This document shows, in pieces, positions 1,608 through 46,851 of a stretch of 64,000 nucleotides of DNA. Numbering within the stretch: position 1 is the first letter of the stretch; each line of letters opens with the position of its first letter. The stretch covers positions 64,495 through 128,494 of the forward strand of contig JBJKYL010000013.1 of NCBI GenBank assembly GCA_045561055.1, read 5' to 3'. A program made the translations under genes and the position numbers. Origin of the DNA: Candidatus Rariloculaceae bacterium. GTDB lineage: Bacteria > Pseudomonadota > Gammaproteobacteria > Steroidobacterales > Rariloculaceae. The notes under the pieces were generated by a model that worked only from the letters and a program-made list of their open reading frames with translations, did no database searches and was not told the origin of the DNA.

Positions 1608-2693
1608 ATGACCATCAGAATGCTTTTGTGTCGGCTAGTTAAATCACTTGCGTCTGAAATTGTTTTTTTCGGCATCCTAAGTTTGCCTATCGTGAGTAGT
1701 GCTCATCATGCTATTGCTGGTAACTACGATTCCCAAACCGTCGTTGAGGTAGAAGGGGAAATTACGTCAATCTTGATGCGAAATCCGCATCCACAAATAG
1801 CGATGCGTGTCACGACAGAAAATGGTGAAGTACAGGATTGGCAGATGGCAACTACGGCGCTTAGCAATATGCGTAGGTGGCAGATTGATCCTGATTTTAT
1901 CCAAGTTGGCGATATTATTCGGGCGGCTGGAAATCCTTCTGTTCGAGTAGACTATGGGCTCTATATCAGTAACCTTTTGACCGCGGAAGGTGAAGAAGTC
2001 CTGTTAGGTGGCAACGTTCAGCCGATATGGACTGACCGTACGATCGAAATGTCTACAAGTAGACGTGCAGGGCTTGGCGATACCTCTTCACCGGAGCTGG
2101 GGATCTTTCGGGTCTGGAGTACAGTCGACAACATCCCCATGCTCATGCCGAGAAATATCGGCCGAACACCTGCAGGTCGCGCTAATCTTACCGAAGCCGC
2201 ACTTGTAGCGGTCGATGATTTTGATTGGGTGCGTGACAATCCACTAAAAAACTGTGCTGAAAAAGGTATGCCACTTATCATGGAAGCGCCCTATCCGTTT
2301 GAATTTCTGCAGGACGGTGAGAATATTCTCTGGCATAACGAGGAGTTCGATACCTATCGGACAATTCATATGTCGCCTAATGCTTCCACAGGTGGACAGC
2401 CAAACTCGCTACTCGGCTACTCGTTAGGGTACTGGGAGGACGAATTCACACTGGTCGTTAATACGAGCCACGTTAACTGGGGGCATTTCGACGGTCAGGG
2501 TGTTCCGGCAAGTACACAGTTAGAATCTATCGAGCGTTTTGAGCTAAGTCCACAAGGGGACCGGCTAGATTACAGCATCACAATCTCTGATCCGGTGTAC
2601 CTAATTGAACCAATGACTTTCGGTAAGCATTGGGTCTGGTACCCCGACGCTGAGGTCGGCGTCTACGATTGTTTGGTCGCAGCAGAAGATTAA
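1608..2693 (+). CDS. Exported fused N+C two-module protein (His-His/NPH N-module plus Cys-bracketed C-module), function unknown; paralog L1
   Basis: ORF track gives 1512-2693. I prefer the internal ATG at 1608 (MTIRMLLCRLV...PIVSSA|HHAIAG) because it yields a normal signal peptide. HH lies at 1704-1709, then LMRNPHPQI. Linker GIFRVWS; C-module NCAEKGMP, LGYSLGYWEDEFTLVVNTSH, ISDPVYLIEP, YDC near the end. Confidence 0.8.
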   Translation: MTIRMLLCRLVKSLASEIVFFGILSLPIVSSAHHAIAGNYDSQTVVEVEGEITSILMRNPHPQIAMRVTTENGEVQDWQMATTALSNMRRWQIDPDFIQVGDIIRAAGNPSVRVDYGLYISNLLTAEGEEVLLGGNVQPIWTDRTIEMSTSRRAGLGDTSSPELGIFRVWSTVDNIPMLMPRNIGRTPAGRANLTEAALVAVDDFDWVRDNPLKNCAEKGMPLIMEAPYPFEFLQDGENILWHNEEFDTYRTIHMSPNASTGGQPNSLLGYSLGYWEDEFTLVVNTSHVNWGHFDGQGVPASTQLESIERFELSPQGDRLDYSITISDPVYLIEPMTFGKHWVWYPDAEVGVYDCLVAAED

Positions 2694-2765
2694 TCTCAGC
2701 GCAAAGTTAATATCGTCTTTCGTATCGTTTTGGGTACCGTTCTTTTACTAAAAATAGTTGGGCTT

Positions 2766-3974
2766 CTATTCCATTAGTATAAATTTTTGTACGCGCTTAC
2801 CCGTCAGTACTTCGCCTGTATAAATATTGCCTTGCGAATCGCTCGCTATACCGTCGATCCAATAGAATTGACCCGCATTTCTTCCTGGGCTACCGAACTG
2901 TCCAACGTGGTCTCCCGTCATGCGGTCATGAATCCATACTCTATGATTTGTACCATCAGCGATAAACATGTATTTCTGTGCGTCGTCGTGAGAGAACGCC
3001 AAGCTGTAAGTTGTTCCACACATTGGTAGGGTTGCATGACCGGGCCCACCGCACATCGGACCACGTGCCGGTGTGTTCGGTGCTACATGGATGTCTTGAA
3101 CGTGTTCACCTTGCTTTGTGAAAACTTGAATGCGATTCATGCCGCGTTCACAGATGTAGACCAAACCGTCGTTAGAAATCATAGTGCAGTGAAGAGCTGG
3201 TGCGAACGCTTCTTGATAAGGCGGTGGGCCACCATTCCAATCATATGCCGGAGTGCGTTCGTTACTGATCTCGCTTAGCGGCATACCATGACCGCCCCAG
3301 CCGCGCTTAAAATCGCCGTTATCCATATCATAGACAAGCACGCGTTTGCCCTCAGTTAGATAAATCTCTCGGGCTTCGTTATCGAGCGTGAAGTTGTGCA
3401 CCCCGTTTACGAGTACGTCAGTCGCTTGATTGTCTTGAAAGTTTCTCGGTATCGGTATTTCGCCTGGTGCGGGCCTCGGGCCGCGAAAGGGAGCATCCCA
3501 GAGAAATTCTCCTTCGCGTGTAAACTTCATCAAGCCCTCACCCTGTCCGAACGCTGAAACCCAGACGTTGAAATCACTATCGACTACAACTGACTGTGGA
3601 CGTCGTGCCCACTGTGGATGAAAGCCAGGACCGCCCCATGCATTGTGTATATTCCCCTCGGCGTCGAATTCGATTATTTCGGGTGCCGGGATACAGCAGT
3701 CGCCACGAGGCGGTGAGTAAGTTGCCATTGCTTCGTCAGGGCGCATGTCATCAGCACGACTTACGGCCCATATGTGATCGTTCTTATCTGTAGTTATGAA
3801 GGGCACGCCTTGTATTAGCCAGGCGTTTGGAAACGGAACCTTCGGCCAGAATGGATCAACGGTGTATTCGGGTACAGCTATATCCTGTGCATAGGTGACT
3901 AGAGGAAGTGAGCTTAGTGTTACTAGTCCAATGAGAGAAAAGAAGTAATTTTCGCGTCGAAAAAATGTTTTCAT
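2766..3974 (-). CDS. Secreted NHL-repeat six-bladed beta-propeller, PAL-like (peptidyl-alpha-hydroxyglycine alpha-amidating lyase-like) with partly degenerate active-site positions
   Basis: Signal peptide MKTFFRRENYFFSLIGLVTLSSLPLVTYA|QD. VDPFWPKVPFP start, and the blade motifs LHCTMISNDGLVYICERGMNRIQVF and GIASDSQGNIYTGEVLTGKRVQKF, align to the paralog at 11601-12656 and to animal PAL as I recall it. Confidence 0.8.
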   Translation of the reverse strand: MKTFFRRENYFFSLIGLVTLSSLPLVTYAQDIAVPEYTVDPFWPKVPFPNAWLIQGVPFITTDKNDHIWAVSRADDMRPDEAMATYSPPRGDCCIPAPEIIEFDAEGNIHNAWGGPGFHPQWARRPQSVVVDSDFNVWVSAFGQGEGLMKFTREGEFLWDAPFRGPRPAPGEIPIPRNFQDNQATDVLVNGVHNFTLDNEAREIYLTEGKRVLVYDMDNGDFKRGWGGHGMPLSEISNERTPAYDWNGGPPPYQEAFAPALHCTMISNDGLVYICERGMNRIQVFTKQGEHVQDIHVAPNTPARGPMCGGPGHATLPMCGTTYSLAFSHDDAQKYMFIADGTNHRVWIHDRMTGDHVGQFGSPGRNAGQFYWIDGIASDSQGNIYTGEVLTGKRVQKFILME

Positions 3975-4285
3975 CTGCTACTCCCGAGAATTGTTATTGC
4001 ACTGCCTCTTAGCTAGTTTGAGGTTTTTTGAGTCAAAAATTATTTATATCAATGTTATCAGTTTCTAAAGTAGAGAGAGTGCACTGCTAGTTTAGGGTAA
4101 CTGGAATGTTATGAGTATCGAGATAAAAAAAACGTTACCGATAGCTAGCGATATCAGAAATTAAAGCTACTAAAAATAGCGATTGTTTTTGGTCTGGTAT
4201 ACGCTACCTACAATAAAGTTAGGGTCCTCAGAGGACAATTTCTCAATACTATAGTTCGCCAAATCAGCAATTTGTTGGAGATGAG

Positions 4286-5875: not shown

Positions 5876-5965
5876 ACCCTATATTTATACGTATTTGTTA
5901 TAGCATTGGTAGATGGTGAAGTGATCACTGACTGCATACCAAGATAAATCACTGACTATAATCTT

Positions 5966-5990: not shown

Positions 5991-6028
5991 GGTTGTTGAT
6001 TCTGAGTTAATTAGAGGAATCGAGAGCC

Positions 6029-7717: not shown

Positions 7718-8728
7718 ATGAAGGTCTTAATAGTTCTGTTTTGTTTTATGTTAGCGCCGACGCTTGGTTTTTCGCACCATTCGCGAGCTGAGTTTTCAGA
7801 TGAAGTCGAAGAGATTACCGGTGAGCTCATTAGTGCGCGTTGGACTAATCCTCATCCAGAGCTGACATTGCTTGTTACTGGGGCGGACGGACTACAGGAG
7901 ACGCTCGTCGTCCAGGTATATGGTGCCGCTAACAATTTACGGCAAGCTGGCGTCACCGACGAGTTGTTCGATATTGGGGATGAGGTGACGATTGCTGGTC
8001 AGCGTTCCTCCCGTCGCGAAGACTTAATCCTCGGCACACATATGCTATTGGTTGATGGTAGACAGGCTATTTTTCATCGCACGTTAGAGCCGTTTTGGTC
8101 GACCGAAATCGTCGGCGGCATGGAAAATTTTCTCGAAGCTGGTTCGGGGCTTGCGGATGGGTTGGCGGAGAATCGAGGATTGTTTCGGATGTGGAGCATT
8201 GTGCAGGGTCCCGGTGGTGATCGTCGTAGTCTGCATATGCTATTGACTGAAGCTGGGATAGCCCGACAGGCTGAGTTCGATGAGGAAAACAGCTGGATTG
8301 GTCGCCTTGAAAAACCTGGCATGCCCGCTTTTATGAACAGTCGCAATAATTTCGAATTCTTTGACGATGGTGACACGATTCGTTACGAGCAAGGCGTGTT
8401 TGATGTCGTACGAACTATCTATCTCCCGGAATCAGAGGGGTTAGAGGACCCTTCCCACTCACCACTAGGTTACTCGACCGGACGGATGGAAGGTAGGACT
8501 TTAATTGTTGAGACAACTCGGCTTAATTGGCCTTACTTTAATCGCGAAGGGATTCCGTTAAGTGAAGATGTGCATATTACTGAGAGATTTACCGTAAGTG
8601 ACGACCAGACAAGTCTCGATTATCACATGACCATTGTCGATCCTGTTAACTTTTCGGAGCCAGTAACTTTGACGCGCCATTGGGTAGCGCTAGAGAACCC
8701 GACGCCTGACGAACGCTACGTTCGATAG
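7718..8728 (+). CDS. Exported fused N+C two-module protein, paralog L2 (the only Cys-free member)
   Basis: MKVLIVLFCFMLAPTLGFS|HHSRAEF, then RWTNPHPEL. Linker GLFRMWS. C-module has EKPGMP (no Cys), LGYSTGRMEGRTLIVETTRLNWPYF, TERFTVSDD, VDPVNFSEP, and a C-terminus ENPTPDERYVR with no Cys. Confidence 0.85.
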   Translation: MKVLIVLFCFMLAPTLGFSHHSRAEFSDEVEEITGELISARWTNPHPELTLLVTGADGLQETLVVQVYGAANNLRQAGVTDELFDIGDEVTIAGQRSSRREDLILGTHMLLVDGRQAIFHRTLEPFWSTEIVGGMENFLEAGSGLADGLAENRGLFRMWSIVQGPGGDRRSLHMLLTEAGIARQAEFDEENSWIGRLEKPGMPAFMNSRNNFEFFDDGDTIRYEQGVFDVVRTIYLPESEGLEDPSHSPLGYSTGRMEGRTLIVETTRLNWPYFNREGIPLSEDVHITERFTVSDDQTSLDYHMTIVDPVNFSEPVTLTRHWVALENPTPDERYVR

Positions 8729-10493: not shown

Positions 10494-11546
10494 CTATCGA
10501 GTAGTGTAAGTTTCGTAGTATTCGTTTCTAGCATTGGTGATTGTGAAGCGACTACCGTCTGCTTCAATCTCCGCTTTGATCCAGTGAGCTTGATCGTTTT
10601 CCACAGTTAGGTTAGCAGTTTTTCGGGCCTCGGTGTTATGGGCGTCGTCCGTTCCTGTCGCGCGATGCATTTGCCAGAAGCCCTCAAGACCGGGGCTTGC
10701 CGCGGCTGTTTCGTAACCGTCGGGATTACCGCCCTTTGTCGCGCCGGTACTGGAGACTGCAGCAATCGGCGCCAGCGACCATACGAACTGTGGCGCAATA
10801 TTGTTGCCATGATGCGGGTAGTCGAGTAGATCGATTGTGCCAACGTTATTGGTTGGGCAGACAAGTGTGTGCAAACCACCCCACGACAGATCGCCGACGT
10901 TGACGTACTGAAAGTCGCCCATCGAGAGATGGAAGCCTAGGCTGTATATGTCCTCGCCATCCGTATCGAGCCCGGTTGGCGCGCAGTCGTCGCCTCTACA
11001 GTACAGGCCATTCGGATCTGTATTTTCGCAAACGGGGTTCGGACCCGGTGATCCGGCCAGAGGTGCGCCAAGGAATTGCTTGTCTCCGGCTATAATTGTT
11101 ACATCGACGCCGCTGAGCGGTAGGATATCTCCCGGCGAGACTGAAGTTCTCTTTCCGGTCTCCGCTGCGGTCAGGTAACGCTCGAAGTTCTCGACTTGGC
11201 GGCCGGAAGTCAGGGTGCTGTCTCCGTAGTCGATAAACTCGATGATCGGCACCATTTCCGCTAGCGCGTAAACCCCGCCCACATGATCGCCGTGAAAATG
11301 AGTCGCGACGAAGTAGTCGAGCTGTCCGACCGCGGCGTCGTCCATGGCGGCTTTGATGCGGTGCGAGTAGATGTCGCCCGGCCGGTCGAATGCGGCGTCT
11401 ACCAGGATCGCCTGGCGCTCCGGCGTCACGATCAGCGTGGCTGCGGCACCGTCGGCGTCGATCCAATAGATATCCATATGTTGTCCATAAACAGCTGATG
11501 TCAAGCAAAGTAGGAGGAGTCCTAACCAGATGTTTACGTTTTTCAT
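10494..11546 (-). CDS. Secreted MBL-fold metallo-hydrolase with intact metal motif
   Basis: Signal peptide MKNVNIWLGLLLLCLTSAVYG. Intact motif VATHFHGDHVGGV (HxHxDH) and a later YPHHGN. Confidence 0.8.
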   Translation of the reverse strand: MKNVNIWLGLLLLCLTSAVYGQHMDIYWIDADGAAATLIVTPERQAILVDAAFDRPGDIYSHRIKAAMDDAAVGQLDYFVATHFHGDHVGGVYALAEMVPIIEFIDYGDSTLTSGRQVENFERYLTAAETGKRTSVSPGDILPLSGVDVTIIAGDKQFLGAPLAGSPGPNPVCENTDPNGLYCRGDDCAPTGLDTDGEDIYSLGFHLSMGDFQYVNVGDLSWGGLHTLVCPTNNVGTIDLLDYPHHGNNIAPQFVWSLAPIAAVSSTGATKGGNPDGYETAAASPGLEGFWQMHRATGTDDAHNTEARKTANLTVENDQAHWIKAEIEADGSRFTITNARNEYYETYTTR

Positions 11547-13970: not shown

Positions 13971-14981
13971 ATGTTGAAAGTTACACGTTTCGGAGTTAGC
14001 CGCCTAACGATCAGTCTATGTCTGGCGAGCTTGCTTGCGTCTGGAGCCCAAGCACAGATATGGCCGACGTCAGTAATTGGGGTGCCTGAAGGGGAGATAG
14101 AGGTTCTCCACGTCAAAGGTAACGTCTACATGTTAGCGGGTTCCGCTGGCAACATTGCGGTGCAGGTCGGTCCTTCAGGTGTGTTAATGGTGGACACCGG
14201 TAGTGCTGCGCTGGCCGATAAGGTATTAGCAGCGGTCGAGACGATCACGAGCGAGCCAATCCGCTACATCGTTAATACCAGTTACCCGGAGGATTATACC
14301 GGTGGCAATGGGACGATTTCGGCGGCTGGACGGTTAGCGACCCCGTTTCGCGGCAGCGGAAGTAGTTCTGTGCAGGGCCAATTCGGTGGGGACAGATCTT
14401 CTGTCATCTCCTACTACACCGTGTTTCATCAGATGGCGGCACCCTCCGATGAGGCGCTAGTCAGAGAGGAAAATTCGTGGCCGGATAATACATTCTCGAC
14501 GCCATTGAAGCGATTGTATTTTAACGACGAGCCAGTGATGATGATGCACCAACCGTCGACGACCGACGGTAACACGATCGTGCTATTCCGAAAATCGGAT
14601 GTCATTGCGGCGGGCGCTGCGCTTAATTTGGAAACCTATCCCGTTATCGATATTGAGGCCGGCGGCAGTATTCAGGCAGTGGTTGTTGCGTTAAATCGGG
14701 TGATTGATATGGCGGTGCCTTCCGAGCGTTCTGAAGGCGGAACGCTGGTGATCCCAGGCCGTGGCAGAATCTCTGATTTTGCAGAGGTGGCACAGCAACG
14801 GGATATGATTTCAATTATCCGCGACCGTGTTCAGAGCATGATTAACGAGGGTATGTCCTTGGCCGATGTGCTCGAAGCAAGACCAACCGAAGGCTATGAT
14901 GTTCGCTATGGAAGTGATAGTGGTCCATGGACAACAGACATGTTTGTCGAAGCAGCCTATTTGAGCCTGGTGGGGCAGTGA
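13971..14981 (+). CDS. Secreted MBL-fold protein with degenerate metal-binding motif (probable pseudoenzyme or binding protein)
   Basis: Signal peptide ...LLASGAQA|QIW. NVYMLAGSAGNIAVQVGPSGVLMVDTGS is the MBL beta-hairpin start. Where HxHxDHxGG is expected the sequence reads IVNTSYPEDYTGGNG, so only the Asp is kept. Starts 4 nt after the upstream stop. Confidence 0.7.
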   Translation: MLKVTRFGVSRLTISLCLASLLASGAQAQIWPTSVIGVPEGEIEVLHVKGNVYMLAGSAGNIAVQVGPSGVLMVDTGSAALADKVLAAVETITSEPIRYIVNTSYPEDYTGGNGTISAAGRLATPFRGSGSSSVQGQFGGDRSSVISYYTVFHQMAAPSDEALVREENSWPDNTFSTPLKRLYFNDEPVMMMHQPSTTDGNTIVLFRKSDVIAAGAALNLETYPVIDIEAGGSIQAVVVALNRVIDMAVPSERSEGGTLVIPGRGRISDFAEVAQQRDMISIIRDRVQSMINEGMSLADVLEARPTEGYDVRYGSDSGPWTTDMFVEAAYLSLVGQ

Positions 14982-15000: not shown

Positions 15001-15399
15001 ATGAAACAATTTAGATTGATGCTACCGTTTGTGATTGGCGGAATTGTTTTTCTGGCAATTACTGGACGCGTACTGGCACACCATTCGTTCTCAGCGACTT
15101 ACCTGCAAGGCAATCAAATCGAAGTCCAAGGCGCAGTTAAGGAACTAGTATGGCGTAATCCGCATTCCTTCTTAAGAATCGATGTTGAGGATGAGAATGG
15201 TGTGTTGCAGACGTGGTCATTGGAATGGACTTCTGCAAATCGGCTGGCCGGTACTGAGATGACCCGAACGACGCTCCGTCCGAAAGACGTCGTTATTGCA
15301 ACTGGAGATCCAGCACGAACCCCGGGAGCGCCACGTCTTTTGCTTCGCCAGTTGAGGCGGCCTAGCGATGGTTGGGAGTGGATTGGTGATATCGACTAG
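15001..15399 (+). CDS. Exported N-module-only protein (His-His/NPH; DUF6152-like by recollection), paralog S1
   Basis: MKQFRLMLPFVIGGIVFLAITGRVLA|HHSFSATYLQGNQIEVQGAVKELVWRNPHSFLRIDVEDENG...WSLEW...; 132 aa. Its end overlaps the next gene. Confidence 0.85.
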   Translation: MKQFRLMLPFVIGGIVFLAITGRVLAHHSFSATYLQGNQIEVQGAVKELVWRNPHSFLRIDVEDENGVLQTWSLEWTSANRLAGTEMTRTTLRPKDVVIATGDPARTPGAPRLLLRQLRRPSDGWEWIGDID

Positions 15400-18540: not shown

Positions 18541-19641
18541 TTAGGGTCCAGCGAATGCGGCTTCAAATTGCAAATGGCGTCGTGAAGTCTCTTCGTCACA
18601 GACTTCACTGCTGAACTCATAATCCGGAACTTTCATCGTCATTTTTCTGAGAGTGAAGGGTTCTCTCAAGAATACGGGGTCCTCTATTGTGTACGAGTAA
18701 TCCATACGCAGCCCACCGTCAACTAACTTATAGCGCTCTGTGACTATCATTTGATCACTGGAATTGATCCCTCGGACTATACCCCAGGGCATCGCCCGGA
18801 ATGCATGCGTTTCCACCACGAGGGTATCGTCACTTTCGAAGTGGCCGACCGAATAACCGAGTTCGGTCAGTTCGTAGTCATTAGGCGGCTGCCACGGGCC
18901 ATTCAGATGGATGACCCGAACCTGGCCAGTCGTGTCCTGAGTGATGCGAATTTCACTTTCCGTTCGGGTCCATAGGCGTGGGAACGGCCAATCGATGATT
19001 CTTGGTAACGCCATCGGCACGCAATCGAAATATGGATCAGTATTGGCATCATAATCTTCCGTCAATTCCTGCCCCCTTTGCGTGAGCGCCATGTCTGCCC
19101 ACGGGGTTTCAAAGTTGCTCACTAGCATCCTTCTGAGATCTTCCGCCCGAGGTAAACCGGAATACCTTGTCCATGTCCCCGAGAAGTCGGTGGAAGGTTC
19201 AAGGGTCACAGATTCGGATTCATCTCGCTGATCCGTTGGCAGTACTGCTTGCTGGAAAGAGTAGAGCAACGTCCCATCGTCGCGTCTGACCGAGTCGAGA
19301 AGCGCGAGCCTTATGCCTTGAGTACGACTCGGGTTCGCTACGACGACGAGGTGGTCTCCTAGTTTTAATGCGTCTCTACTCCAGCCGTTTCTCTCCAACC
19401 CAGAAACGGAGTGTGACTCCAGCGTCCATTCTTCAGATTGGCTACCTTGTTCAGTGGAATTTACCACGAGGTAAACATGCGGATTGCGCCAAGTTATTTC
19501 GGTGACTGTGCCCTCAATCTCGATTGTCTCATCCAGTAAGAAACCTGAGCGAGAATGATGCCCCAGAGTCTGGAAACTTTGTAAAAAAGCTAGACAGAAA
19601 AACGAGGAAAGGCCAAGACTAATTATTCTTGATCTATTCAT
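18541..19641 (-). CDS. Exported fused N+C two-module protein, paralog L3
   Basis: ...FLQSFQTLG|HHSRSGF, TWRNPHVYL, GDHLVVVANP. C-module has FSGTWTRYS, YFDCVPMALP, LGYSVGHFESDDTLVVETHAF, TERYKLVDGG, IEDPVFLREP and SEVCDE. Confidence 0.85.
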   Translation of the reverse strand: MNRSRIISLGLSSFFCLAFLQSFQTLGHHSRSGFLLDETIEIEGTVTEITWRNPHVYLVVNSTEQGSQSEEWTLESHSVSGLERNGWSRDALKLGDHLVVVANPSRTQGIRLALLDSVRRDDGTLLYSFQQAVLPTDQRDESESVTLEPSTDFSGTWTRYSGLPRAEDLRRMLVSNFETPWADMALTQRGQELTEDYDANTDPYFDCVPMALPRIIDWPFPRLWTRTESEIRITQDTTGQVRVIHLNGPWQPPNDYELTELGYSVGHFESDDTLVVETHAFRAMPWGIVRGINSSDQMIVTERYKLVDGGLRMDYSYTIEDPVFLREPFTLRKMTMKVPDYEFSSEVCDEETSRRHLQFEAAFAGP

Positions 19642-22714: not shown

Positions 22715-23133
22715 CGATTTGGGGGTTCCTCAGTAAATATGACCTCACCTGTGTCCGTGAGGATAACCTGCGCTCCGTTGGCACCACGCGAAAGTCTGAT
22801 ACTAGGGGCTCCATTCTTCATTGCTAAGCCGCGAACTGTCACTCTATCACCAGGTTTCAGGATATTTTTGTGCCAGCCTTCCGTGGCCATTAGCGGTGGG
22901 TTATTGAATTCGGCCATCCAGCGCACCGGATTGCCAGCTTCATCTTCTACTTCAACAGCGAGTAGCGCGTGGGGATTGATAAACATTAACTGAATGACTG
23001 TGCCGGAAATTTCTGATAGCTGATCTTCGTATCGACCAGCTGTGCCGTGATGCGCATATGCAACTGAGCTTACCAATACACTCACAGTCAGTACGTGAAG
23101 TGCGGCATGAAAGCGTCTATTTACTTTGTTCAT
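22711..23133 (-). CDS. Exported N-module-only protein (His-His/NPH), paralog S2
   Basis: MNKVNRRFHAALHVLTVSVLVSSVAYA|HHGTAGRYEDQLSEISGTVIQLMFINPHALLAVEVEDEAGNPVRW...GDRVTVRG; 140 aa. The stop overlaps the propeller start by 4 nt. Confidence 0.85.
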   Translation of the reverse strand: MNKVNRRFHAALHVLTVSVLVSSVAYAHHGTAGRYEDQLSEISGTVIQLMFINPHALLAVEVEDEAGNPVRWMAEFNNPPLMATEGWHKNILKPGDRVTVRGLAMKNGAPSIRLSRGANGAQVILTDTGEVIFTEEPPNR

Positions 23134-29856: not shown

Positions 29857-29974
29857 TAAGAAAATTAGCTGGATGCGCACATCAATATTTGCTTATAGGT
29901 AAACTCCTTGCAAACTAGATCTGTTATCTTCCTGGTGTAAAGCGCTCGCAAAATAATAATAGGTGAGGAGTCAT

Positions 29975-31670
29975 ATGATGACATTAGTAAAGAGTGTATT
30001 TGGATTTTTGGTGCTGGGTGCGCTGTGCGCTTGCACCCCAGAAACACCGATTAGTTTCTCCGTAGATCCTGAAACAGTAGCCGCTACGGACGGTCAGCCG
30101 AATATCCTTTTTGTCGTCCTTGATGATCTTGGCTTTACAGATATGGGCGCGTTCGGCAGCGAGATACCGACACCAAATATCGATCGGCTAGCATTTGAAG
30201 GCGTGCGGTTAACCAATCTGCATGCTGCCGCGAACTGTCAATCGGCTCGTATCATGTGGATGGCAAGCACGAGTATCGCAAATGGTATCGGTATCTATCC
30301 GAGAGATGTTGAGCGGCCGGCGGGTATTCGTGGGTCCTATTTAAGCCTGGAATACGCGACGATTGCGGAGCTCCTGCAGGATGCCGGATACCAAACCTTT
30401 ATGGCGGGTAAGTGGGATCTAGGGGGTTTAGAGCACTCGCCAGCAAGGCGTGGATTTGACCGTAGTTTTGCACTCCTTCCCGCATCAGCCGATTATTTCG
30501 GCAACAATCAACGCCCGATTTCTTACGAGGAGGACGGCCGGCCGGTAGCGCTAGACGAACTACCGGATGACTTTTATACGACTAATTATTTCACTGATAA
30601 AACGCTCGAGCATCTACAGGCAAGTGATCCAGATTCACCCTGGTTTGCATACTTATCTTTCAATGCTCCCCATTGGCCGCTCATGGCACCAAGACGACTG
30701 GCTCGACCGTCACGCTGGCCGTTACGATGACGGTTACGACGTGCTTCGTGAGCAACGCGTCGGGCGAGCGAGTGAGTTAGGGGTCGTGCCAGCAGGTTTG
30801 TCACTTGATTCTTTCGTTCCGGTTGCGGAGCCCTGGGATCAATTAAGCCAAGTTGAACAGCGGCGCTATTCACGTGCTCAGGAAATCTACGCGGCTATCG
30901 TTGAGCATACTGATATGAACATCGGTCGAGTTATCGATTACCTTGAAGAAACTGGACAGCTTGAAAACACAGTGGTCATGCTGATGTCGGACCATGGTGG
31001 TTCAGCTGCCGAATCCGGAGTGTCTACAGGCCGGCTACCGACCGAAGAAAATATCCGCGGCCTTGATCCCTCTGAGATTGATAATAGTTTGGAAAATTTT
31101 GGTCGTGGTAATTCATTTATCGATCATGGCATAGGTTTTGGCGAAGCGGCGAGCGCGCCATTTCGACAGTTTAAAGCGACCTTGAGTGAGGGTGGGTTAA
31201 CCGCTGCCGCGTACGTTCGTTACCCGAGTGTGGTGCCTGCCGGCGGAGTCAGCGATACGTTCTTGACTGTAATGGATATCTTGCCAACTTTTCTTGAGAT
31301 CGGCGGGACCGAGCATCCCGGTGCGGGTGAGTATCGTGGACGTTCCATTCACGGTATTCTCGGTCGGTCGTTCCTACCCATGCTAGTAGGCGAGACAGAG
31401 GTAGTTCATCCGCCGACCGAACCGTTTGGTTGGTATCGTGGCATTTCTGGCGCTCTAATTCGCGGTGACTATAAAATCATTAATGATATAGAGCTAAGTC
31501 CGGTAGCCGGTTTATCAGGGGAACGGGCCGGATTACCGTGGCGATTGTATAATTTGGCAACCGATCGCGGCGAAACTAATGATTTGGCGCTAGAATTTCC
31601 AGACCTTACAGCTGAGCTCGCGGCAGAATGGGAAGCGAATTGGCGTAGCCGAGAGGCTAGACATAATTAA
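29975..31670 (+). pseudogene. Cys-type arylsulfatase (paralog of 4286-5875) interrupted by one frameshift
   Basis: ORF 29963-30730 (likely ATG 29975 or 29978 after AGGTGAGGAG) carries PNILFVVLDDLGFTDMGAFGSEIPTPNID, NCQSARIMWMAS and FNAPHWPLMAP. The frame is then lost near 30686-30692. ORF 30567-31670 resumes DDWLDRHAGRYDDGYDVLREQR, colinear with the intact paralog (APHWPLQLPDAWLDRYAGRYDEGYDVLREER). Confidence 0.85.
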
Positions 31671-31701: not shown

Positions 31702-32715
31702 ATGACTCGTTTGGGCTTATTTTTAATGGTAGTTTTCGGTTCGACCGCAGCATTAGCCCATCATGCATTCAGTGCGTTCTATGACACTAATAATGTTGGT
31801 GATATCGAGGGCGAGCTGATTGAGACGTTCTGGATCAACCCACACGCGGGTTTCAGAATTCGTACCGACGACGGTGAAATTTGGAATATCGAGACAGCGC
31901 CCGTCAATCGCTTACAGCGGTTAGGACTTGCTGAAGCTATAGTAGTGGGCGATCGGGTTACTTTTTCTGGTGCCTTTTCGCGGCTGGGACGAAATGAAGT
32001 GCTCGCTACTAACGCGATTTTGGCGGATGGTCGGGAGGTTCTGCTAGATCCCGGTTTTGCCAATCGACTCGGACTTGCGGACCGCGTAACTTCTGGTGGA
32101 AGTGATGGAGCAGATCCCGTTGCGGTTGCTGGGGGTGCTGAGCCAGAAGGTATCTACCGTGTTTGGTCGCGCGCGCGCGGGCCGAACGATCAGGACCCTG
32201 AACGCACGTTTACATCAGCCGCTCTGGCAGCCAGAGCGGCTTGGGATCCGGTCGTTGATGATCCGGCACTTCGCTGTATTGCTCCGGGGATGCCGGTTGT
32301 GATGGATACGCCTTTCCCGATGGCGTTCGAAGAAGGAGATGGTCGAATTATTCTTCGTATAGAGCAATGGGACAGTGTCCGTAGTATTCACATCGATAGC
32401 GACCTGGACCCGCAAGCGCAACCTGACTCATTAATGGGGTATTCAGTCGGGCATTGGGAAGGACGGACGCTTGTTGTAGAGACGTCGAATATCAGCTGGC
32501 CTTATGTCGATGAGTTCGGTACGCCTAAAAGTGATGAGTTTACGATTGTTGAGCGCTTCACTTTTAGCGAGGACAGTCGTGGAATGACCTGGGAGGCGAC
32601 GTCCAATGATCCATTGACCTATGAGGGTTCTGCCTTTCTTGGTAGCGCTAGTTATGAATGGGTGCCTGGCGAAGAAATCAAGCCTTATAACTGTTCGCTT
32701 GGCGCTGCAGGCTAA
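31702..32715 (+). CDS. Exported fused N+C two-module protein, paralog L5
   Basis: MTRLGLFLMVVFGSTAALA|HHAFSAFYD, FWINPHAGF, GDRVTFSG. C-module has GIYRVWS, ALRCIAPGMP, MGYSVGHWEGRTLVVETSNISWPYV, VERFTFSED, SNDPLTYEG and PYNCS. Starts 31 nt after the broken sulfatase. Confidence 0.85.
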   Translation: MTRLGLFLMVVFGSTAALAHHAFSAFYDTNNVGDIEGELIETFWINPHAGFRIRTDDGEIWNIETAPVNRLQRLGLAEAIVVGDRVTFSGAFSRLGRNEVLATNAILADGREVLLDPGFANRLGLADRVTSGGSDGADPVAVAGGAEPEGIYRVWSRARGPNDQDPERTFTSAALAARAAWDPVVDDPALRCIAPGMPVVMDTPFPMAFEEGDGRIILRIEQWDSVRSIHIDSDLDPQAQPDSLMGYSVGHWEGRTLVVETSNISWPYVDEFGTPKSDEFTIVERFTFSEDSRGMTWEATSNDPLTYEGSAFLGSASYEWVPGEEIKPYNCSLGAAG

Positions 32716-39613: not shown

Positions 39614-40177
39614 ATGAAAAATAGGTTTCTACTCGCAGTTATTGCCAGTGGACTCGTTCTGTTTTCTGATTTAGCAATATCGCACCATTCTTTTGCGCAG
39701 AGACTTGCAGGCGAAATAGAGTCGCTTGAATTTTATGACGGTACGATTGATCTTTATAGGATGCTCAATCCTCACAGCGCGCTGTTTCTGACGCTCGAAA
39801 ATGAGGACGGGAGTAACGCCGAATGGCTTATAGAACTCAGTTCTGCGTCGACGCTAGGCCGCGAAGGCTGGACGCCAGAATTACTCAGTTCGGGAGATCG
39901 AGTCTCCGTCGCGATCTTAGCGTCACGGACACCGAATCGTGGGCGACTTCGCGCTATGCTGGTGCATGGAACGAGTGATACAGAATCATCGAGACTTATC
40001 GTCGCATACGGTATCCGGGGAGACACGCCGATCATGCGACGACTGCGAGATAGGCTTCCGACGTGCGTGGGTATGGAAGGAAAGCTTAATAGAGGCGAGT
40101 GTTTTGTTGTGTCGCATGCCGTTTTACAAGATTTAGAAAATGAGTTTCCAGGGCAGATGGGTTATGTGATGCCATGA
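39614..40177 (+). CDS. Exported N-module-only protein (His-His/NPH) with extra C-terminal tail, paralog S4
   Basis: ORF track starts at 39590. ATG 39614 gives MKNRFLLAVIASGLVLFSDLAIS|HHSFAQRL, then RMLNPHSALFLTLENEDG, WLIELS and GDRVSVAI. The stop overlaps the next start as ATGA (40174-40177). Confidence 0.75.
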   Translation: MKNRFLLAVIASGLVLFSDLAISHHSFAQRLAGEIESLEFYDGTIDLYRMLNPHSALFLTLENEDGSNAEWLIELSSASTLGREGWTPELLSSGDRVSVAILASRTPNRGRLRAMLVHGTSDTESSRLIVAYGIRGDTPIMRRLRDRLPTCVGMEGKLNRGECFVVSHAVLQDLENEFPGQMGYVMP

Positions 40178-40905
40178 AAATATTTATTGGTCAATTGTTA
40201 TCAGAGAGAGTAGCGTTTTTTCTTGTAGCAGTAATGGGTGGTTTCTTCAGTTCTATTGTTTTTTCGCAACCACCGGATTTCTTCGGTAGATATGTAGGTG
40301 TATTGACGATAGAAGAGCCGGCAGAATATCTCCTTACCGAGCTAGGCCAGGATTCTTACGACAACTATGATCCTAACTATGGGGATCCGCGACAGTGGGA
40401 TGACTGCGCACTAGAAGGGATCCCACCGCTTTTGTTTACGCCCGGCGTCGCGACCGTTGACCTGCTTGAGCTCGACGACGGTAATATTGAGATGCGATAC
40501 GAACGCGATGATGCGATACGCACCGTGCACATGAATTTAGAAGGATTTTCTGAGGATCAATCCGATTCTCCACTAGGTTACTCGCACGGATATTGGATCG
40601 ATAACATACTAACCATAGAAACTTCGAGTTTGGCGGGAGGCGTTGTCATTGCCCAGAAGCGCTATCCAATAAGTGTGGATGCTCATGTGACCGAGCGCTA
40701 TTGGCGTGAGCCAGGTGATAATGATTTAAAGATGGAGGTTGTGGTCGACGATCCCGTGAACTATAGAAAACCGATCAAGATCGGACGGACCTGGGTCTGG
40801 TCGCCAGATGCGCCGCTTTTGCCATGGGATTGTGTCGGCCTCGGACAAAGACATAGCGAAGATTTAGATATTAGTGAACTCAGACGCATGCTAGAAGAGC
40901 AATAA
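40174..40905 (+). CDS. Exported C-module-only protein, paralog C3
   Basis: Hydrophobic N-terminus, then WDDCALEGIPP, LGYSHGYWIDNILTIETSS, TERYWREPGD, VDDPVNYRKP and PWDCV. Ends 11 nt before the coxG-like gene. Confidence 0.75.
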   Translation: MKIFIGQLLSERVAFFLVAVMGGFFSSIVFSQPPDFFGRYVGVLTIEEPAEYLLTELGQDSYDNYDPNYGDPRQWDDCALEGIPPLLFTPGVATVDLLELDDGNIEMRYERDDAIRTVHMNLEGFSEDQSDSPLGYSHGYWIDNILTIETSSLAGGVVIAQKRYPISVDAHVTERYWREPGDNDLKMEVVVDDPVNYRKPIKIGRTWVWSPDAPLLPWDCVGLGQRHSEDLDISELRRMLEEQ

Positions 40906-41975: not shown

Positions 41976-41976
41976 A

Positions 41977-42777: not shown

Positions 42778-42833
42778 CTTTCTGCCATTTGCGATTAATA
42801 TTAGCCCCTAACGGTTAACGACTGAGGAGAGGT

Positions 42834-44201
42834 ATGGATCCAAATACAGCAGTTGCCACTAGTCCGTTGGTTGCGCTCCTCGCCTTTCTAGGTGTCATCG
42901 TGCTCCTGTTATTCCTTATTGCGAAGTGGCGCTGGCATGTGTTTCTCGCGTTGCTGGTTCCGTTACTGTTGTTCGGGATCGTACCCGGCGTGCAGCAAAA
43001 TAATTTTATCAACGCGTTCGAGACAGGTTTTGGTTCGACGCTTGGTTCGATCGGGGTAGTAATTGTGCTTGGCTCGATTATCGCAGAGGCGTTACGTCAC
43101 ACTGGTGCTATACAAACGATTACTCGCACTATGGTGCAGGCCGTTGGCACTAAACGAATGCCGTTGGCGCTTACGCTGACCGGCTTCGTCTTAGGTATCG
43201 CGATTTTTTCTGACGTAGCCTACGTCATTCTAAATCCTCTCGTGCACTCTGCCGCTAAGATGATGGGCGTCACGGTCAGTGTTATGTCGATCGGACTCGT
43301 TGGTTCGCTGCAGTTAACTCATGCGATCGTCCCGCCGACCCCAGGTCCGCTAGCTGCAGCTGCTCTCGTCGGTGCAGATATAGGTAAGACAATTATTTGC
43401 GGTACCGTGGCCTGTCTCGCGGGCTCACTGGCTGGTTGGGTTTGGGGTCAGTACATCGTCGGTCCTCGGATTAAGACGATGCCCTCGGACGAGTATGCTG
43501 GCGAAAACTTTCTAGAGGAAGATGCGGAAGGAAAGTTGCCAGGTCCTTTGGGGTCCTATGCACCAATACTCGTGCCGATTTTGTTGATTTCTGCCCAGAG
43601 TATCTCGCGGTTATTTCTCGACGAGGGACATATCATTCGTTCAGGATTAGCTTATATAGGCTGGCCGGTCGTGGCACTAAGTGTTGGGGTAATTCTTGCT
43701 TACCGGAATATAAAAACTCCGGAACATCGTAAGGACTCCAAGAATGCATGGGTGGAAGAGGCATTAAGAGTGTCCGCTATGATTCTTGTGGTAACAGGTC
43801 TTGGTGGTTCGCTGAGTGAAATTTTGAAGGCCACTCCTGCTGTCGACTATATTAGCGGCTTCTTTGCTTCTTACGGACTCCCCTCGATTCTTTTGCCATT
43901 CGTTGTCGGAATTATTGGTAACATGATTACCGGCTCCACTACAGTTGGCGTAATTACAGCAGCGTCTCTCGTAGCACCTATGCTCGGTAGCCTAGATTTA
44001 TCTCCTGAAGCTGCGATGTTAGCCGGAGCCAGCGGTTCGGTTATGATTAAATACGTGAACTCGAGTTACTTTTGGGTTTGTACTTCACTTAGCCGAGTAC
44101 CTGTTAATGACGCGATTCTTGGTTACGGAGGAGCTACGTTCGTTGGAGGTATTGCTTCTTTTCTTATGGTTTGCCTAATGTGGGCGATGGAATTTATTTA
44201 A
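42834..44201 (+). CDS. GntP-family (gluconate/organic acid:H+) permease
   Basis: 455 aa and highly hydrophobic. N-terminus LLFLIAKWRWHVFLALLV and the internal LGSIIAEALRHTGA are GntP-like. Confidence 0.75.
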   Translation: MDPNTAVATSPLVALLAFLGVIVLLLFLIAKWRWHVFLALLVPLLLFGIVPGVQQNNFINAFETGFGSTLGSIGVVIVLGSIIAEALRHTGAIQTITRTMVQAVGTKRMPLALTLTGFVLGIAIFSDVAYVILNPLVHSAAKMMGVTVSVMSIGLVGSLQLTHAIVPPTPGPLAAAALVGADIGKTIICGTVACLAGSLAGWVWGQYIVGPRIKTMPSDEYAGENFLEEDAEGKLPGPLGSYAPILVPILLISAQSISRLFLDEGHIIRSGLAYIGWPVVALSVGVILAYRNIKTPEHRKDSKNAWVEEALRVSAMILVVTGLGGSLSEILKATPAVDYISGFFASYGLPSILLPFVVGIIGNMITGSTTVGVITAASLVAPMLGSLDLSPEAAMLAGASGSVMIKYVNSSYFWVCTSLSRVPVNDAILGYGGATFVGGIASFLMVCLMWAMEFI

Positions 44202-44254
44202 GAACTATTTTGTACTGCGTTGCGTAGTTCGATAGTTTTAGATGGTGCTCAAAC

Positions 44255-45322
44255 GTGTCTGATAAATACAATATTCTTTTCCTTGGTGCTTCATACGGTT
44301 CGTTGTTTGCAGCGAAAGCCGCGCTCGCGGGCCATTCGGCTCACTTGATTTGTCTTCCGGAAGAGGTTGAGCTCATCAATAGTGAAGGTGCGGTTGTTCG
44401 TCTGCCGGTTCGCAGTATTGATTCGCCAGTGGAGCTCAATAGTAAGACAATGGTTGGTAGGGTCTCGGCGGGTGCTCCAGAAGATACCGATCCTGCTGAT
44501 TATGACCTGGTTGTTTTGGCTATGCAGGAGCCACAGTACCGGTTTCCCGCTGTGAAGGACCTACTTCAGAAGGTTGGTGCTGCGGCTAAACCGTGTATGT
44601 CGATAATGAATATGCCACCGCTCGCTTACTTAAAGCGAATTCCGAGCATAAATACGGATGTTCTCAGGGACTGCTATACAGATGCTTCTGTATGGGACAG
44701 TTTTAATCCAGCACTAATAACATTGTGTAGCCCGGATCCACAGGCATACCGGCCGCCGGACGAGAAATGTAATGTGCTTCAGGTAGGACTGCCGACCAAC
44801 TTCAAAGCGGCCCGTTTCGAGTCCGACGAACATACCGCGCTTCTCCGTCAGATCGAAGACGATATTCAAAACATTCGTTACGAAGTTGATGGTAATGAAG
44901 TCGAGTTGCCTGTGAAGCTACGTGTGCATGAGTCGTTATTTGTGCCACTTGCTAAATGGGCCATGCTTATGACCGGTAATTACCGCTGTGTGCAGGAAGA
45001 GAAGATGATTCCGATTAAGCAGGCCGTTCATTCCGATACAGAAGTGTCTGCCGAGATTTATAATCTGATTGCTGAGCTCTGCGTTAGTCTTGGCGGTGAT
45101 CGTAACGATCTCGTACCGTTCGAGAAATACGGGAATGCAGCGTTATCGTTACAGAAACCTTCATCGGCCGCGCGCGCATTGCTAGCTGGGGCGCCTTACA
45201 TTGAGCGCGTTGACAGACTTATACAGACGTTAGCGTCGGCCCAGGGGATGCGGTCGGCACACATTGATCGAACGGTAACGTTTGTCGATAGTTGGTTAGG
45301 TAAAAATAGAGCATCTGACTGA
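44255..45322 (+). CDS. Putative NAD(P)-binding oxidoreductase, ketopantoate-reductase (ApbA/PanE)-like fold; weak call
   Basis: GTG start. YNILFLGASYGSLFAAKAALAGHSAHLI resembles the GxGxxG-type start of ApbA-family reductases. The remainder I could not assign. Confidence 0.35.
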   Translation: MSDKYNILFLGASYGSLFAAKAALAGHSAHLICLPEEVELINSEGAVVRLPVRSIDSPVELNSKTMVGRVSAGAPEDTDPADYDLVVLAMQEPQYRFPAVKDLLQKVGAAAKPCMSIMNMPPLAYLKRIPSINTDVLRDCYTDASVWDSFNPALITLCSPDPQAYRPPDEKCNVLQVGLPTNFKAARFESDEHTALLRQIEDDIQNIRYEVDGNEVELPVKLRVHESLFVPLAKWAMLMTGNYRCVQEEKMIPIKQAVHSDTEVSAEIYNLIAELCVSLGGDRNDLVPFEKYGNAALSLQKPSSAARALLAGAPYIERVDRLIQTLASAQGMRSAHIDRTVTFVDSWLGKNRASD

Positions 45323-45496
45323 GTAACTTATTGTTGGCTATTGCTATATAAAACAGGCGATAGCTGTTTTCGATAATGTTTTGTGGATAGCTATTCCTAA
45401 TTAACGCTCCACTCGGGCGATTAAATCGAGACTCGTACGCATCTGTCTCGCGGACTCAGCTATTGAATTATCAGTTCGACGGCGGGTTCCTTTTCC

Positions 45497-46291
45497 TTAA
45501 TTTACATCTTCGTCAAGGAAACTTTCAAACGAGCTAAAATCTAGGTAGTCGCCCGAACAACTAATCTCGCTTAACTCCCAGTTTACAGGTGCAAGCCGAT
45601 AGTAAAGCGTCTCTGCAATCCATGGCTCGGCCAGCGCGATTGGGTCTTCCATTGTGATATCGATTTCGAGATTGAGATTGTCAATGCGGCGGAAAACTTC
45701 TGTTACTTTCAATTGGTCGCTGTGTTGGTAGCCAGAACGATCCATCCATGTTCTTTCGTCGATACCGACAGTCGTCACGATGAAGGTCGTATCGTTTTGC
45801 CATTCGCCTACTGAGTTTCCGAGCCACAGCATTACGGGGTCCTCTGGGCTCTCGCGCCCGTCCGTATAAATGCGTCGAATAGTGTGGTCGTACTCATAGA
45901 GTAGAATGGTCTCTTTTTCTGTGTAAACGACTTCGAAGGGATATGGATGGAAATAGACACGCGGTACCCCGGGTGGATAGCAGCGAGTAAGGACCGGATC
46001 GTTAGTTTCGCCCAATGCGAAGGCGCCCGCGTTAGAGTTTTTCGCCTGTTCAAAGAGTGTCTGTCCCCATTCCGTCAGAATCGGTGGCTCGGGTGTCCAG
46101 GTTGAGCCGCTACGGAAAGTCCCTTCAGGGCTGATTCTCGTCCAGACTCCAGTGAGATCACGAGCAGGCGCTGGACCGTCTACATGGGGGGTAACTGTCG
46201 TTGGAGATCCGGTACCGAACTGGGCGGAGCTGCCTTGGGAAAACCCAAGCGCCACTGCGGCTAGTAAAATCGTTATTGTTATTAGGCGCAT
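45497..46291 (-). CDS. Exported C-module-only protein, paralog C4
   Basis: Signal peptide MRLITITILLAAVALGFSQGSSA|QF. LTGVWTRIS, LTRCYPPGVP, LGNSVGEWQNDTTFIVTTVG, TEVFRRIDN, MEDPIALAEP and EISCSG. Confidence 0.75.
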   Translation of the reverse strand: MRLITITILLAAVALGFSQGSSAQFGTGSPTTVTPHVDGPAPARDLTGVWTRISPEGTFRSGSTWTPEPPILTEWGQTLFEQAKNSNAGAFALGETNDPVLTRCYPPGVPRVYFHPYPFEVVYTEKETILLYEYDHTIRRIYTDGRESPEDPVMLWLGNSVGEWQNDTTFIVTTVGIDERTWMDRSGYQHSDQLKVTEVFRRIDNLNLEIDITMEDPIALAEPWIAETLYYRLAPVNWELSEISCSGDYLDFSSFESFLDEDVN

Positions 46292-46425
46292 GCTATTAAC
46301 TCTCCGTAGCAGTAATTAGGTCTTTCTGGATTTGAGTCGCAGAGATGAGATATTCGTTGCATTTACAGAGATTGTAGCTACTACTCTAACGGGTGAGTAT
46401 GCCGATTTAGCTACGCTCATAAATA

Positions 46426-46851
46426 TTATCGTAACGAGTGTGTTCCGATGCTTTCACCAGTCGTCAGGTCGATTGATTCCCAAAGCGCGATGTTTTCACC
46501 ATTAGGCATGATTATTTCCCTAATATGAACCGCGTGACCGCCATTTCGGGCTTGGGCCCCACTGATACGAATTTTGCTTCCTGGTACGAGTGTGTTCTTT
46601 GTCCAGCCGCCTCGTGCTAGTTTATTCGGAGCGGTTAGCTCGCCCGACCAATGTTGAATTTCGCCATTTTCAAGGGTCACGTCGAAGTAAACCTGCGAAT
46701 GCGGGTTAATGAATTTGAACTCGGTAACAGTGGCATCGAGTTTTACCATGTGCTCGCCGTAGGCAGCTCTACCGTGATGGGCGAACGCCGCAGCACTAAT
46801 GAGCAACGCGGTGAAGCTAGCCGCAATTAGCAAAAATTTGTGATTAGTCAT
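46426..46851 (-). CDS. Exported N-module-only protein (His-His/NPH), paralog S3
   Basis: MTNHKFLLIAASFTALLISAAAFA|HHGRAAYGEHMVKLDATVTEFKFINPHSQVYFDVTLENGEIQHW...GSKIRISG; 141 aa. Lies 134 nt upstream of C4 on the same strand. Confidence 0.85.
   Translation of the reverse strand: MTNHKFLLIAASFTALLISAAAFAHHGRAAYGEHMVKLDATVTEFKFINPHSQVYFDVTLENGEIQHWSGELTAPNKLARGGWTKNTLVPGSKIRISGAQARNGGHAVHIREIIMPNGENIALWESIDLTTGESIGTHSLR

Follow-up and report, generated by a model that had tools for sequence, protein, structure and literature searches.

A family of 13 exported proteins that are assembled from two modules is encoded in the 64,000-nt stretch of a Candidatus (Ca.) Rariloculaceae bacterium genome that was analyzed here (contig JBJKYL010000013.1; below, "the window" is this whole stretch, with position 1 as its first letter). 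The N-module belongs to the Pfam family DUF6152 (PF19649) and is predicted to begin with two histidines once the signal peptide has been removed, and the C-module is an unannotated domain for which a β-barrel is tentatively predicted. As a specific proposal that is quite possible but still tentative, we suggest that these proteins are self-contained two-part periplasmic metalloproteins, in which an N-terminal His chelate would act on a small molecule held by the barrel, with the ligand differing from paralog to paralog. In its general form, i.e. a metal site and a ligand pocket that work together, this idea is on balance probable, and its catalytic version, in which the chemistry would probably be oxidative, is put forward with more reserve.

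The two modules

A likeness of the N-module to DUF6152 had been suggested in an earlier, sequence-only reading of the window, and this likeness is now verified, as PF19649 matches all nine N-modules. Eight of them score above the gathering threshold of 27 bits (39.8-81 bits, E 5e-10 to 7e-23), and the N-module of g07 (the labels g01-g13 denote the 13 family open reading frames, ORFs; Table 1) remains under this cut-off with 22.7 bits, yet is a member according to the family hidden Markov model (HMM) and BLASTP. In all nine copies, an n-region and a hydrophobic h-region lead to a small-x-small (A-x-A-type) site, which is followed by His-His and then by the conserved elements F/Y-D, G, W-x-N-P-H, W..E, R-x-G and G-D. 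A scan of a genome collection gave at least 539 relatives, and 80 loci in other genomes were kept for locus counts. At these loci, a canonical signal-peptidase site lies directly before His-His in 93 of 96 N-modules, with A (84), G (6), S (2) or T (1) at position -1 and A, V, L, S or T at position -3, and the three N-modules without the standard layout are truncated or divergent ORFs. As the cleavage site directly precedes the doublet, the mature N-module would start with His1-His2, and the predicted cleavage would thereby provide His1 with a free α-amino group. In an alignment of 102 mature N-module sequences from several phyla (mature numbering), all 102 have H1, H2, P28 and H29, and D9, G18, N27, G39, W42, E45 and G64 are nearly invariant. 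The homologs of the N-only protein g13 (317) are typically 125-131 aa long.

A structure model of the fused protein g09, generated with AlphaFold2 (AF2; predicted local distance difference test, pLDDT, 88.9; predicted template modeling score, pTM, 0.82), contains a barrel of five to six strands and one helix at residues 27-114, and a disordered linker at residues 132-144. When this N domain was compared with the PDB by Foldseek, OB-folds were found (the LysRS anticodon-binding domain, Stn1/Ten1, Rim1 SSB and the PolD OB domain), and the compact matches among them superpose with root-mean-square deviations of 2.7-3.2 Å over ~80 residues. The weak secondary Pfam matches of the N-modules are to OB-fold families as well (tRNA_anti-codon, DUF4131, tRNA_anti-like), and the N-module (~100 aa in its mature form) is predicted by modeling to be an OB-fold. 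Nucleic-acid binding was rejected as a function of this fold, because the protein is exported. Full-text literature searches for DUF6152 and PF19649 found no paper, so that neither the invariant mature His-His nor the C partner of DUF6152 is mentioned there, and DUF6152 is not among the families listed in the signal-strapping paper and its supplements (PMC12537917).

In case of the C-module, the nine window copies have no Pfam match at E<=1 and no NCBIfam match at E<=0.1, and a sequence-profile search of the PDB gave no match at E<=10. Pfam domains found in 149 diverse representatives of the C family (E<=0.5) were those of fusion partners only, namely DUF6152 in four and Lactamase_B in one, and none of the 910 homologs of g12 carries any Pfam domain. 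The initial impression that neither module belongs to a characterized family thus holds for the Pfam, NCBIfam and PDB sequence searches, DUF6152 being a family without assigned function. Among 124 aligned C-module sequences (g09 numbering), the conserved positions are W155, C192, G196, P198, E221, R227, G246, S248, G250, W252, E/D253, G254, L257, E284, R285, D303, P304 and C331, of which E221, R227, S248, E284, R285 and D303 are polar invariants. Exactly two Cys are present per mature C-module in eight of the nine window copies, and g02 has lost both of them together, which indicates a disulfide that would staple the helical insert to the C-terminal tail. Likewise, R227 and E284 are jointly lost in g03, in the L001 ortholog of g03, where the substitutions are identical, and in L027, and this joint loss in three sequences indicates a direct ion pair between Arg227 and Glu284. 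Strand periodicity places both residues on the conserved hydrophobic face, and they would therefore point into the barrel interior.

The AF2 model of the C-only protein g12 (pLDDT 84.7) consists of one strand, a helical insert of ~60 residues and then eight strands, and in a Foldseek search of the PDB, intracellular lipid-binding proteins (CRABP2, CRBP1, FABPs and Der f 13) make up all of its best matches. The C-module (~220 aa) is tentatively regarded, on the basis of this model, as a FABP/calycin-like β-barrel, and its polar core, i.e. the Arg227-Glu284 pair together with Ser248, Trp252 and Asp303, may constitute a small-molecule pocket. Assignment to the lipocalin, FABP or YceI profile families was rejected, as there is no sequence match, and an α/β serine hydrolase, which the string G-Y-S-x-G might indicate, was rejected because this string lies within a predicted β-strand, the C-module has no conserved His, and no hydrolase family of Pfam matches.

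Partnership of the modules and spread of the family

In Proteobacteria, Acidobacteriota and further phyla, N- and C-modules consistently occur as partners. The 80 loci contain 43 fused N-C ORFs, 54 N-only and 101 C-only genes, often clustered in arrays with as many as seven genes within 9 kb, and in the window an N-only gene lies directly upstream of a C-only gene three times, with a 32-nt overlap (g04/g05), a 4-nt overlap (g10/g11) or a 134-nt gap (g13-g12). Signal peptides are found on N-only, C-only and fused proteins, which supports the supposed export in all three architectures, and the supposed modular two-part organization is strongly supported by fusion and fission across phyla. Adjacent split genes on the same strand occur in both orders (24 times C->N, 20 times N->C, and 24 times C->C), whereas the fused order is always N-C (at least 42 proteins) and never C-N, and this difference fits an N-module that needs a free N-terminus. 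A single "NCN" ORF (L020), which could be taken for a C-N fusion with an internal His-His, is a frameshift read-through of two genes. As a fragmented TonB-dependent receptor (TBDR) and a split sulfatase are present in the window, the split N and C genes were also considered as frameshift artefacts, but this was rejected, since the C-only proteins carry signal peptides themselves and the same length recurs in hundreds of stand-alone homologs.

The only constant partner of the C-module is the N-module or another C-module, with one exception found, which is a link of the g03-type C-module to metallo-β-lactamase (MBL)-like proteins. In the database protein P0376, the C-module is fused to an MBL-like (Lactamase_B) domain instead of an N-module. 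The homolog of this domain in the window is the gene 13971-14981 (E=8e-10) and not the MBL gene 10494-11546. The product of 13971-14981 has a degenerate HxHxDH motif (NTSYPEDY) and weak NCBIfam matches to SoxH-related/MBL "quinoprotein relay system" metallohydrolases. In view of the P0376 fusion, the C-module may be a pocket module that is served by a metal-bearing partner, and the comparison suggests that another metal-type domain can take the place of the N-module. In Acidobacteriota and Micropepsaceae (L038, L037, L050), three to five C-only genes (330-430 aa) follow one another in arrays, accompanied by one N-module gene or none, and tandem C-C proteins of 480-530 aa are found in databases; together, these suggest that C-modules form hetero-oligomers. 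An N-module with a downstream partner other than a C-module is represented by g08, which overlaps by 4 nt with an FG-GAP repeat gene (20972-22714, minus strand, 580 aa, FG-GAP_2), and the two genes appear to be translationally coupled.

The family is large: a C-module profile retrieved 17,589 clusters (at 50% identity) with E<=1e-3, 10,343 of them with E<=1e-10. The hosts at the 80 loci are Ca. Rariloculaceae, Steroidobacterales, Woeseiaceae, Pseudohongiellaceae, SAR86, Rhodospirillaceae, sphingomonads and Caulobacteraceae, and further Vicinamibacterales, Bryobacteraceae, other Acidobacteriota, Chloroflexota and Verrucomicrobiia, with the closest relative among the matches listed being from Ca. 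Rariloculaceae (77%). Homologs are named "hypothetical protein" in the databases, and fused forms are named "DUF6152 family protein" by NCBI. Cultured hosts include Novosphingobium sp. PP1Y, Novosphingobium humi with the gene order hypothetical gene-C-DUF6152-TetR, Croceibacterium atlanticum with the operon DUF6152-DUF6152-C-TBDR-MarR, and Sinorhizobium mexicanum, in which an N gene precedes a C gene with a 4-nt overlap.

The genes in the window and their neighbors

All 13 ORFs that the sequence-only reading had listed are present at their coordinates (Table 1), and when HMMs derived from the window copies were run against the six-frame translation, the nine N- and nine C-modules of the earlier count were found and no others, the next-best ORF being at E>0.5. 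Their coding sequence sums up to 10,356 nt or 16.2% of the window, in agreement with the estimate of about 10.4 kb and one sixth. Each gene is tied into the family by all-vs-all BLASTP, with E-values of 1e-15 to 1e-45 among the five fused proteins and of 1e-8 to 1e-20 between C-only and fused proteins, g05 being the weakest member, and the similarity that had been claimed for the 13 genes is thus real. As the paralogs share 22-35% identity, whereas orthologs in related genomes share 77-87%, the copies in the window are old duplicates, and their strong divergence had been correctly noted. The motif patterns that had been described for the two modules are real too, with the exceptions that g02 has lost both conserved Cys, that g03 has GFTTG and no Arg-Glu pair, and that g05 is divergent. 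For g01 and g10, the starts 1608 and 39614, which provide normal signal peptides, are preferred over the longest-ORF starts 1512 and 39590.

Table 1. Family genes and the MBL-like gene next to g03 (window coordinates; His-His entries are codon positions; E-values and bit scores as specified)
Gene	Architecture	Position	Strand	Features
g01	fused N-C, 361 aa	1608..2693	+	His-His 1704-1709; DUF6152 E=9.7e-12; C 107 bits (external profile); two Cys in mature C part
g02	fused N-C, 336 aa	7718..8728	+	His-His 7775-7780; DUF6152 E=4.9e-10; C 85.7 bits; C192L, C331 absent
g03	C-only, 304 aa	13052..13966	+	divergent subtype; R227Q, E284T; 74.7 bits (external profile)
MBL-like	exported protein	13971..14981	+	5 nt 3' of g03; degenerate metal motif; tentative partner of g03-type C-module
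g04	N-only, 132 aa	15001..15399	+	His-His 15079-15084; DUF6152 E=2.4e-19
g05	C-only, 273 aa	15368..16189	+	32-nt overlap with g04; most divergent of all C-modules
g06	fused N-C, 366 aa	18541..19641	-	His-His 19555-19560; DUF6152 E=3.7e-21; C 125.6 bits
g07	fused N-C, 355 aa	19750..20817	-	His-His 20728-20733; APH replaces NPH; DUF6152 22.7 bits; N 117.6 bits (family HMM); C 93.6 bits
g08	N-only, 140 aa	22711..23133	-	His-His 23047-23052; DUF6152 E=5.5e-21; 4-nt overlap with downstream FG-GAP gene 20972-22714
g09	fused N-C, 337 aa	31702..32715	+	His-His 31759-31764; DUF6152 E=1.6e-12; fused structure model
g10	N-only, 187 aa, C-terminal extension	39614..40177	+	His-His 39683-39688; DUF6152 E=1.6e-15
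g11	C-only, 243 aa	40174..40905	+	4-nt overlap with g10; 81.9 bits (external profile); own signal peptide
g12	C-only, 264 aa	45497..46291	-	downstream of g13; C-only structure model
g13	N-only, 141 aa	46426..46851	-	His-His 46774-46779; DUF6152 E=7.2e-23

The 117 ORFs that flank family genes at the 80 loci contain 132 Pfam families without any dominant partner, the commonest being the Plug domain of TBDRs (6), CarboxypepD_reg-type receptors (5), PQQ dehydrogenases (4), NHL propellers (4) and esterases (3). A conserved neighbor that would disclose the function was therefore rejected, with even Plug reaching only six. The association with sulfatases, propellers, MBL-fold proteins and a molybdenum (Mo) hydroxylase operon, to which importance had been given from the window, is not general at these loci, and the one exception found is the MBL-like link of the g03 type. 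In an 83%-identical relative, the order sulfatase-g09-YCII-UbiD-MoCoBD ... CoxG-Fer2-FAD-g12-g13 is found, and g10/g11, the GntP permease and the ORF 44255-45322 are missing. As g10/g11 are absent from this otherwise syntenic relative, the N/C pair behaves as an independent cassette, and an integral role in the Mo-hydroxylase operon was rejected, since the relative keeps the Mo-hydroxylase genes but not g10/g11. A link of g12/g13 to GGT was also rejected, as orthologs are found elsewhere among sulfatases or beside a TRAP transporter. The segments 39614-40905 and 42834-45322 represent recent gene-content differences to the relative inside the Mo-hydroxylase region, and the ORF 44255-45322 encodes 355 aa with a Rossmann-like N-terminus and has no Pfam match.

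Several further observations concern the surroundings of the family genes. The TBDR at 27101-29612 (minus strand) is distributed over at least three to four ORFs (Plug 28587-29612, barrel 27438-28490, fragments 28460-28696 and 27101-27523) and is either a pseudogene or the result of assembly frameshifts. The sulfatase at 29963-31670 (plus strand) is split into the overlapping ORFs 29963-30730 and 30567-31670, and as its ortholog in the 83%-identical relative is a single protein of 559 aa, the window sulfatase carries a frameshift, be it real or a sequencing error. A tRNA-Pro(CGG) gene (1078-1154, minus strand) lies ~450 nt upstream of g01, and the GC content hardly varies over the region (0.46-0.51); tRNA genes are common integration sites of islands. 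Just outside the family region, a CBM9/DUF5916 protein is encoded (49239-51485, plus strand), and the same domain combination occurs near a g12 homolog in another genome (L086 14607-14789). The cluster 51631-56824, which looks like a Ni/Zn/Co uptake system, contains genes for two ZnuA-like binding proteins, an ABC-3 permease, an ABC ATPase, DUF6162 and a DUF4198 protein, and no family member. The DUF4198 protein (55856-56824, minus strand) has a signal peptide that ends with AFS and is directly followed by H, i.e. an N-terminal His.

Proposed metal site and ligand pocket, and alternative functions

N-terminal X-His motifs such as GHK are high-affinity Cu(II) sites. According to two papers on the subject, an N-terminal His that has been exposed by removal of the signal peptide chelates 3d metals with its amine and its imidazole group, whatever the fold (PMC12537917, PMC10952591). 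By analogy, the His-His N-terminus would unite the N-terminal His chelate with the X-His motif. On this basis, the N-terminal His-His of the N-module may bind a metal, which would be Cu(II), or Ni or Zn, and the C barrel may hold an imported amphipathic or anionic organic molecule, on which the metal could then carry out chemistry that would most likely be oxidative. The N- and C-modules would act as one unit, either fused as N-C or co-operonic, sometimes as C-C-N, and the diverged paralogs would represent ligand-specific versions for the periplasmic breakdown of complex organic matter. We infer metal binding, the identity of the metal, ligand binding by the barrel and catalysis alike. Nine N- and nine C-copies lie within 46 kb, arrays exist in other genomes, and the catabolic contexts vary; with so many old paralogs next to catabolic genes, a role in metal homeostasis alone is disfavored, and ligand-specific enzymes or carriers fit better.

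How do these proteins relate to known systems? In the Pfam entry for DUF6152, to which the N-module belongs, no function is given, and the fused or adjacent C-module of ~220 aa is missing from the Pfam and NCBIfam copies that were searched. With histidine-brace and other N-terminal-His proteins as described in the literature (LPMOs, CopC, the CuB site of PmoB and YcnI, and, from 2025, DUF4198, which binds Ni through its N-terminal His, DUF6702 and "anglerases"; PMC12537917, PMC10952591), the N-module shares a predicted cleavage that exposes His1 and a further invariant His (H29). The conservation of His1 is 100% in the N-module versus 65-79% in DUF6702 and DUF4198 (PMC12537917). Unlike N-terminal-His proteins of Ig-like or β-sandwich fold, the family has a predicted OB-fold, a His-His doublet and a separate barrel partner, and membership in the LPMO or CopC families was rejected because the N-module is not predicted to be an Ig-like or cupredoxin-like β-sandwich. 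The C-module resembles calycins (FABP/CRABP/CRBP, lipocalins, YceI) in its predicted antiparallel barrel of about nine strands, the helical insert after strand A, the G-x-W-type first strand and the conserved, probably buried Arg, but it has no sequence similarity to them, is about twice as large as FABPs, periplasmic and apparently disulfide-stapled, and its Arg is paired with a co-varying Glu. NlpE/CutF is an envelope lipoprotein with a CXXC motif, in which a lipocalin-like domain is N-terminal to an OB-fold domain. The same two types of fold are thus predicted here within one exported protein, but in reversed order (OB, then barrel), and the N-modules have signal peptidase I-type sites; as no window copy matches the Pfam family NlpE and as the domain order is reversed, membership was rejected. 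Bug/TctC receptors, which have the type II periplasmic binding protein fold, occur as many diverged paralogs beside unrelated catabolic genes. Such a scattered pattern of diverged paralogs beside catabolic genes is also seen in the family described here, although the fold is unrelated and Bug/TctC proteins have neither an N-terminal His nor a two-module structure. In its proposed way of working, the family comes closest to the N-terminal-His metalloproteins, and its barrel comes closest to the calycins. It can be classified as a variation of the secreted N-terminal-His metalloprotein theme in which both the scaffold and the partner module are new, the metal site being putative.

Several points weigh against the proposal that the His chelate acts on a barrel-held ligand. 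C-only genes outnumber N-only genes at the 80 loci (101 versus 54), and at some loci no N-module is found within 8-15 kb of C genes (five C genes at L038, one at L086). No conserved His, Met or Tyr is present in the 124 C-module sequences that could complete a redox site, and no electron donor or redox partner recurs in the neighborhoods, Cytochrome_CBB3 being found in two of the 117 neighbors. The topology of the OB-fold suggests that the N-terminal tail and the L12 loop with the NPH motif may be located at opposite ends of the barrel, and the tail at the junction of signal peptide and His-His has a low pLDDT in the g09 model. Finally, the Foldseek match of the C barrel has a probability of 0.97-1.0 but is weak in terms of E-value (~3e-3) and TM score (~0.5 on the target).

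What alternatives exist for this proposal? The FABP/calycin-like barrel would suit a periplasmic carrier of ligands or a solute receptor without catalytic function, in which the barrel and its buried Arg anchor imported amphipathic or anionic molecules as in FABPs and hand them over between TBDRs, periplasmic enzymes and inner-membrane transporters, with the OB domain and the His-His tail used for docking or gating and with a paralog expansion as in Bug/TctC. The many diverged paralogs that are scattered among different catabolic genes agree with such a carrier, as do the C genes without a nearby N gene, the TBDRs that directly flank a family gene in at least 8 of the 80 loci (detected with a proteobacterial-type profile), the additional CarboxypepD_reg-type receptors in Acidobacteriota and the TBDR gene in the Croceibacterium atlanticum operon. 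A carrier gives no reason, however, for an invariant mature N-terminal His-His or for the restriction of fusions to the N-C order, no conserved transporter is found among the neighbors at the 80 loci, and the maintenance of the polar core across ~25%-identical paralogs would be unusual for receptors of diverse ligands unless these share a head-group; we consider a pure carrier unlikely. Proteins such as DUF4198, DUF6702, Ang-1/2 and CopC are metal binders and not enzymes (PMC12537917), and the His-His tail might accordingly serve metal capture or trafficking, in the manner of a metallochaperone or "anglerase" that takes Cu, Ni or Zn to periplasmic metalloenzymes or importers, with the barrel as metallophore binder or scaffold. 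Some neighbors are indeed metalloenzymes (MBL, Amidohydro_2, glyoxalase), TBDRs are adjacent in a minority of loci, and one JGI record of an N-only homolog bears the automated name "uncharacterized cupredoxin-like copper-binding protein". The number of copies, i.e. nine N and nine C per 46 kb in the window and as many as seven genes within 9 kb in arrays of other genomes, is nevertheless far above the usual need of homeostasis, metal regulators, P-type ATPases or Cop/Cus genes do not recur among the neighbors at the 80 loci, and the putative metal-uptake cluster of the window (ZnuA/ABC/DUF4198) has no family member, all of which renders metal trafficking rather improbable.

A further possibility follows from known inhibitors that chelate with their N-terminus. 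TIMPs do so by means of an OB-fold and Cys1, and the serralysin inhibitors (Inh) by means of a calycin barrel with an N-terminal trunk. The folds of both inhibitor classes are predicted here, and exported metallohydrolases are common among the neighbors in the window, so that the family could inhibit or regulate periplasmic metallohydrolases by chelation of the catalytic metal of the target through the N-terminal residue. As no enzyme family co-occurs consistently at the 80 loci, as the presence or absence of the g10/g11 cassette does not follow that of its neighbors, and as neither sequence nor profile searches found a similar PDB chain, inhibitors included, such a role is very improbable. 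We return to the proposal of an N-terminal metal site that works together with a ligand-holding barrel. Its most far-reaching form, which is speculative and in itself improbable, would be that DUF6152 and the barrel constitute a very large and hitherto unrecognized class of periplasmic copper enzymes with a His-brace-like site on an OB-fold, which oxidize small amphipathic or sulfated molecules in a calycin-type pocket, occur with tens of paralogs per genome in TBDR-rich marine and soil bacteria, and thereby are a soluble small-molecule counterpart of LPMOs.

The C family is very large, has neither an entry in the Pfam and NCBIfam copies searched nor a PDB sequence match, and did not appear in the literature searches. 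DUF6152, with its invariant His at the predicted mature N-terminus (here a His-His doublet), shows the clearest sign of a secreted metal site that sequence alone can give, on a fold that has not previously been linked to such chemistry. The proposal can be tested in the cultured hosts Novosphingobium humi, Novosphingobium sp. PP1Y, Croceibacterium atlanticum and Sinorhizobium mexicanum. Lineages with a dominant role in recycling complex organic matter commonly carry the family, among them Ca. Rariloculaceae, Woeseiaceae, Steroidobacterales, SAR86, Pseudohongiellaceae, sphingomonads, Vicinamibacterales and Bryobacteraceae. If the members of the family are indeed metalloenzymes or metal-gated carriers, they would be a new component of the periplasmic processing downstream of TonB-dependent uptake, and the histidine-brace family would be extended to a new scaffold.

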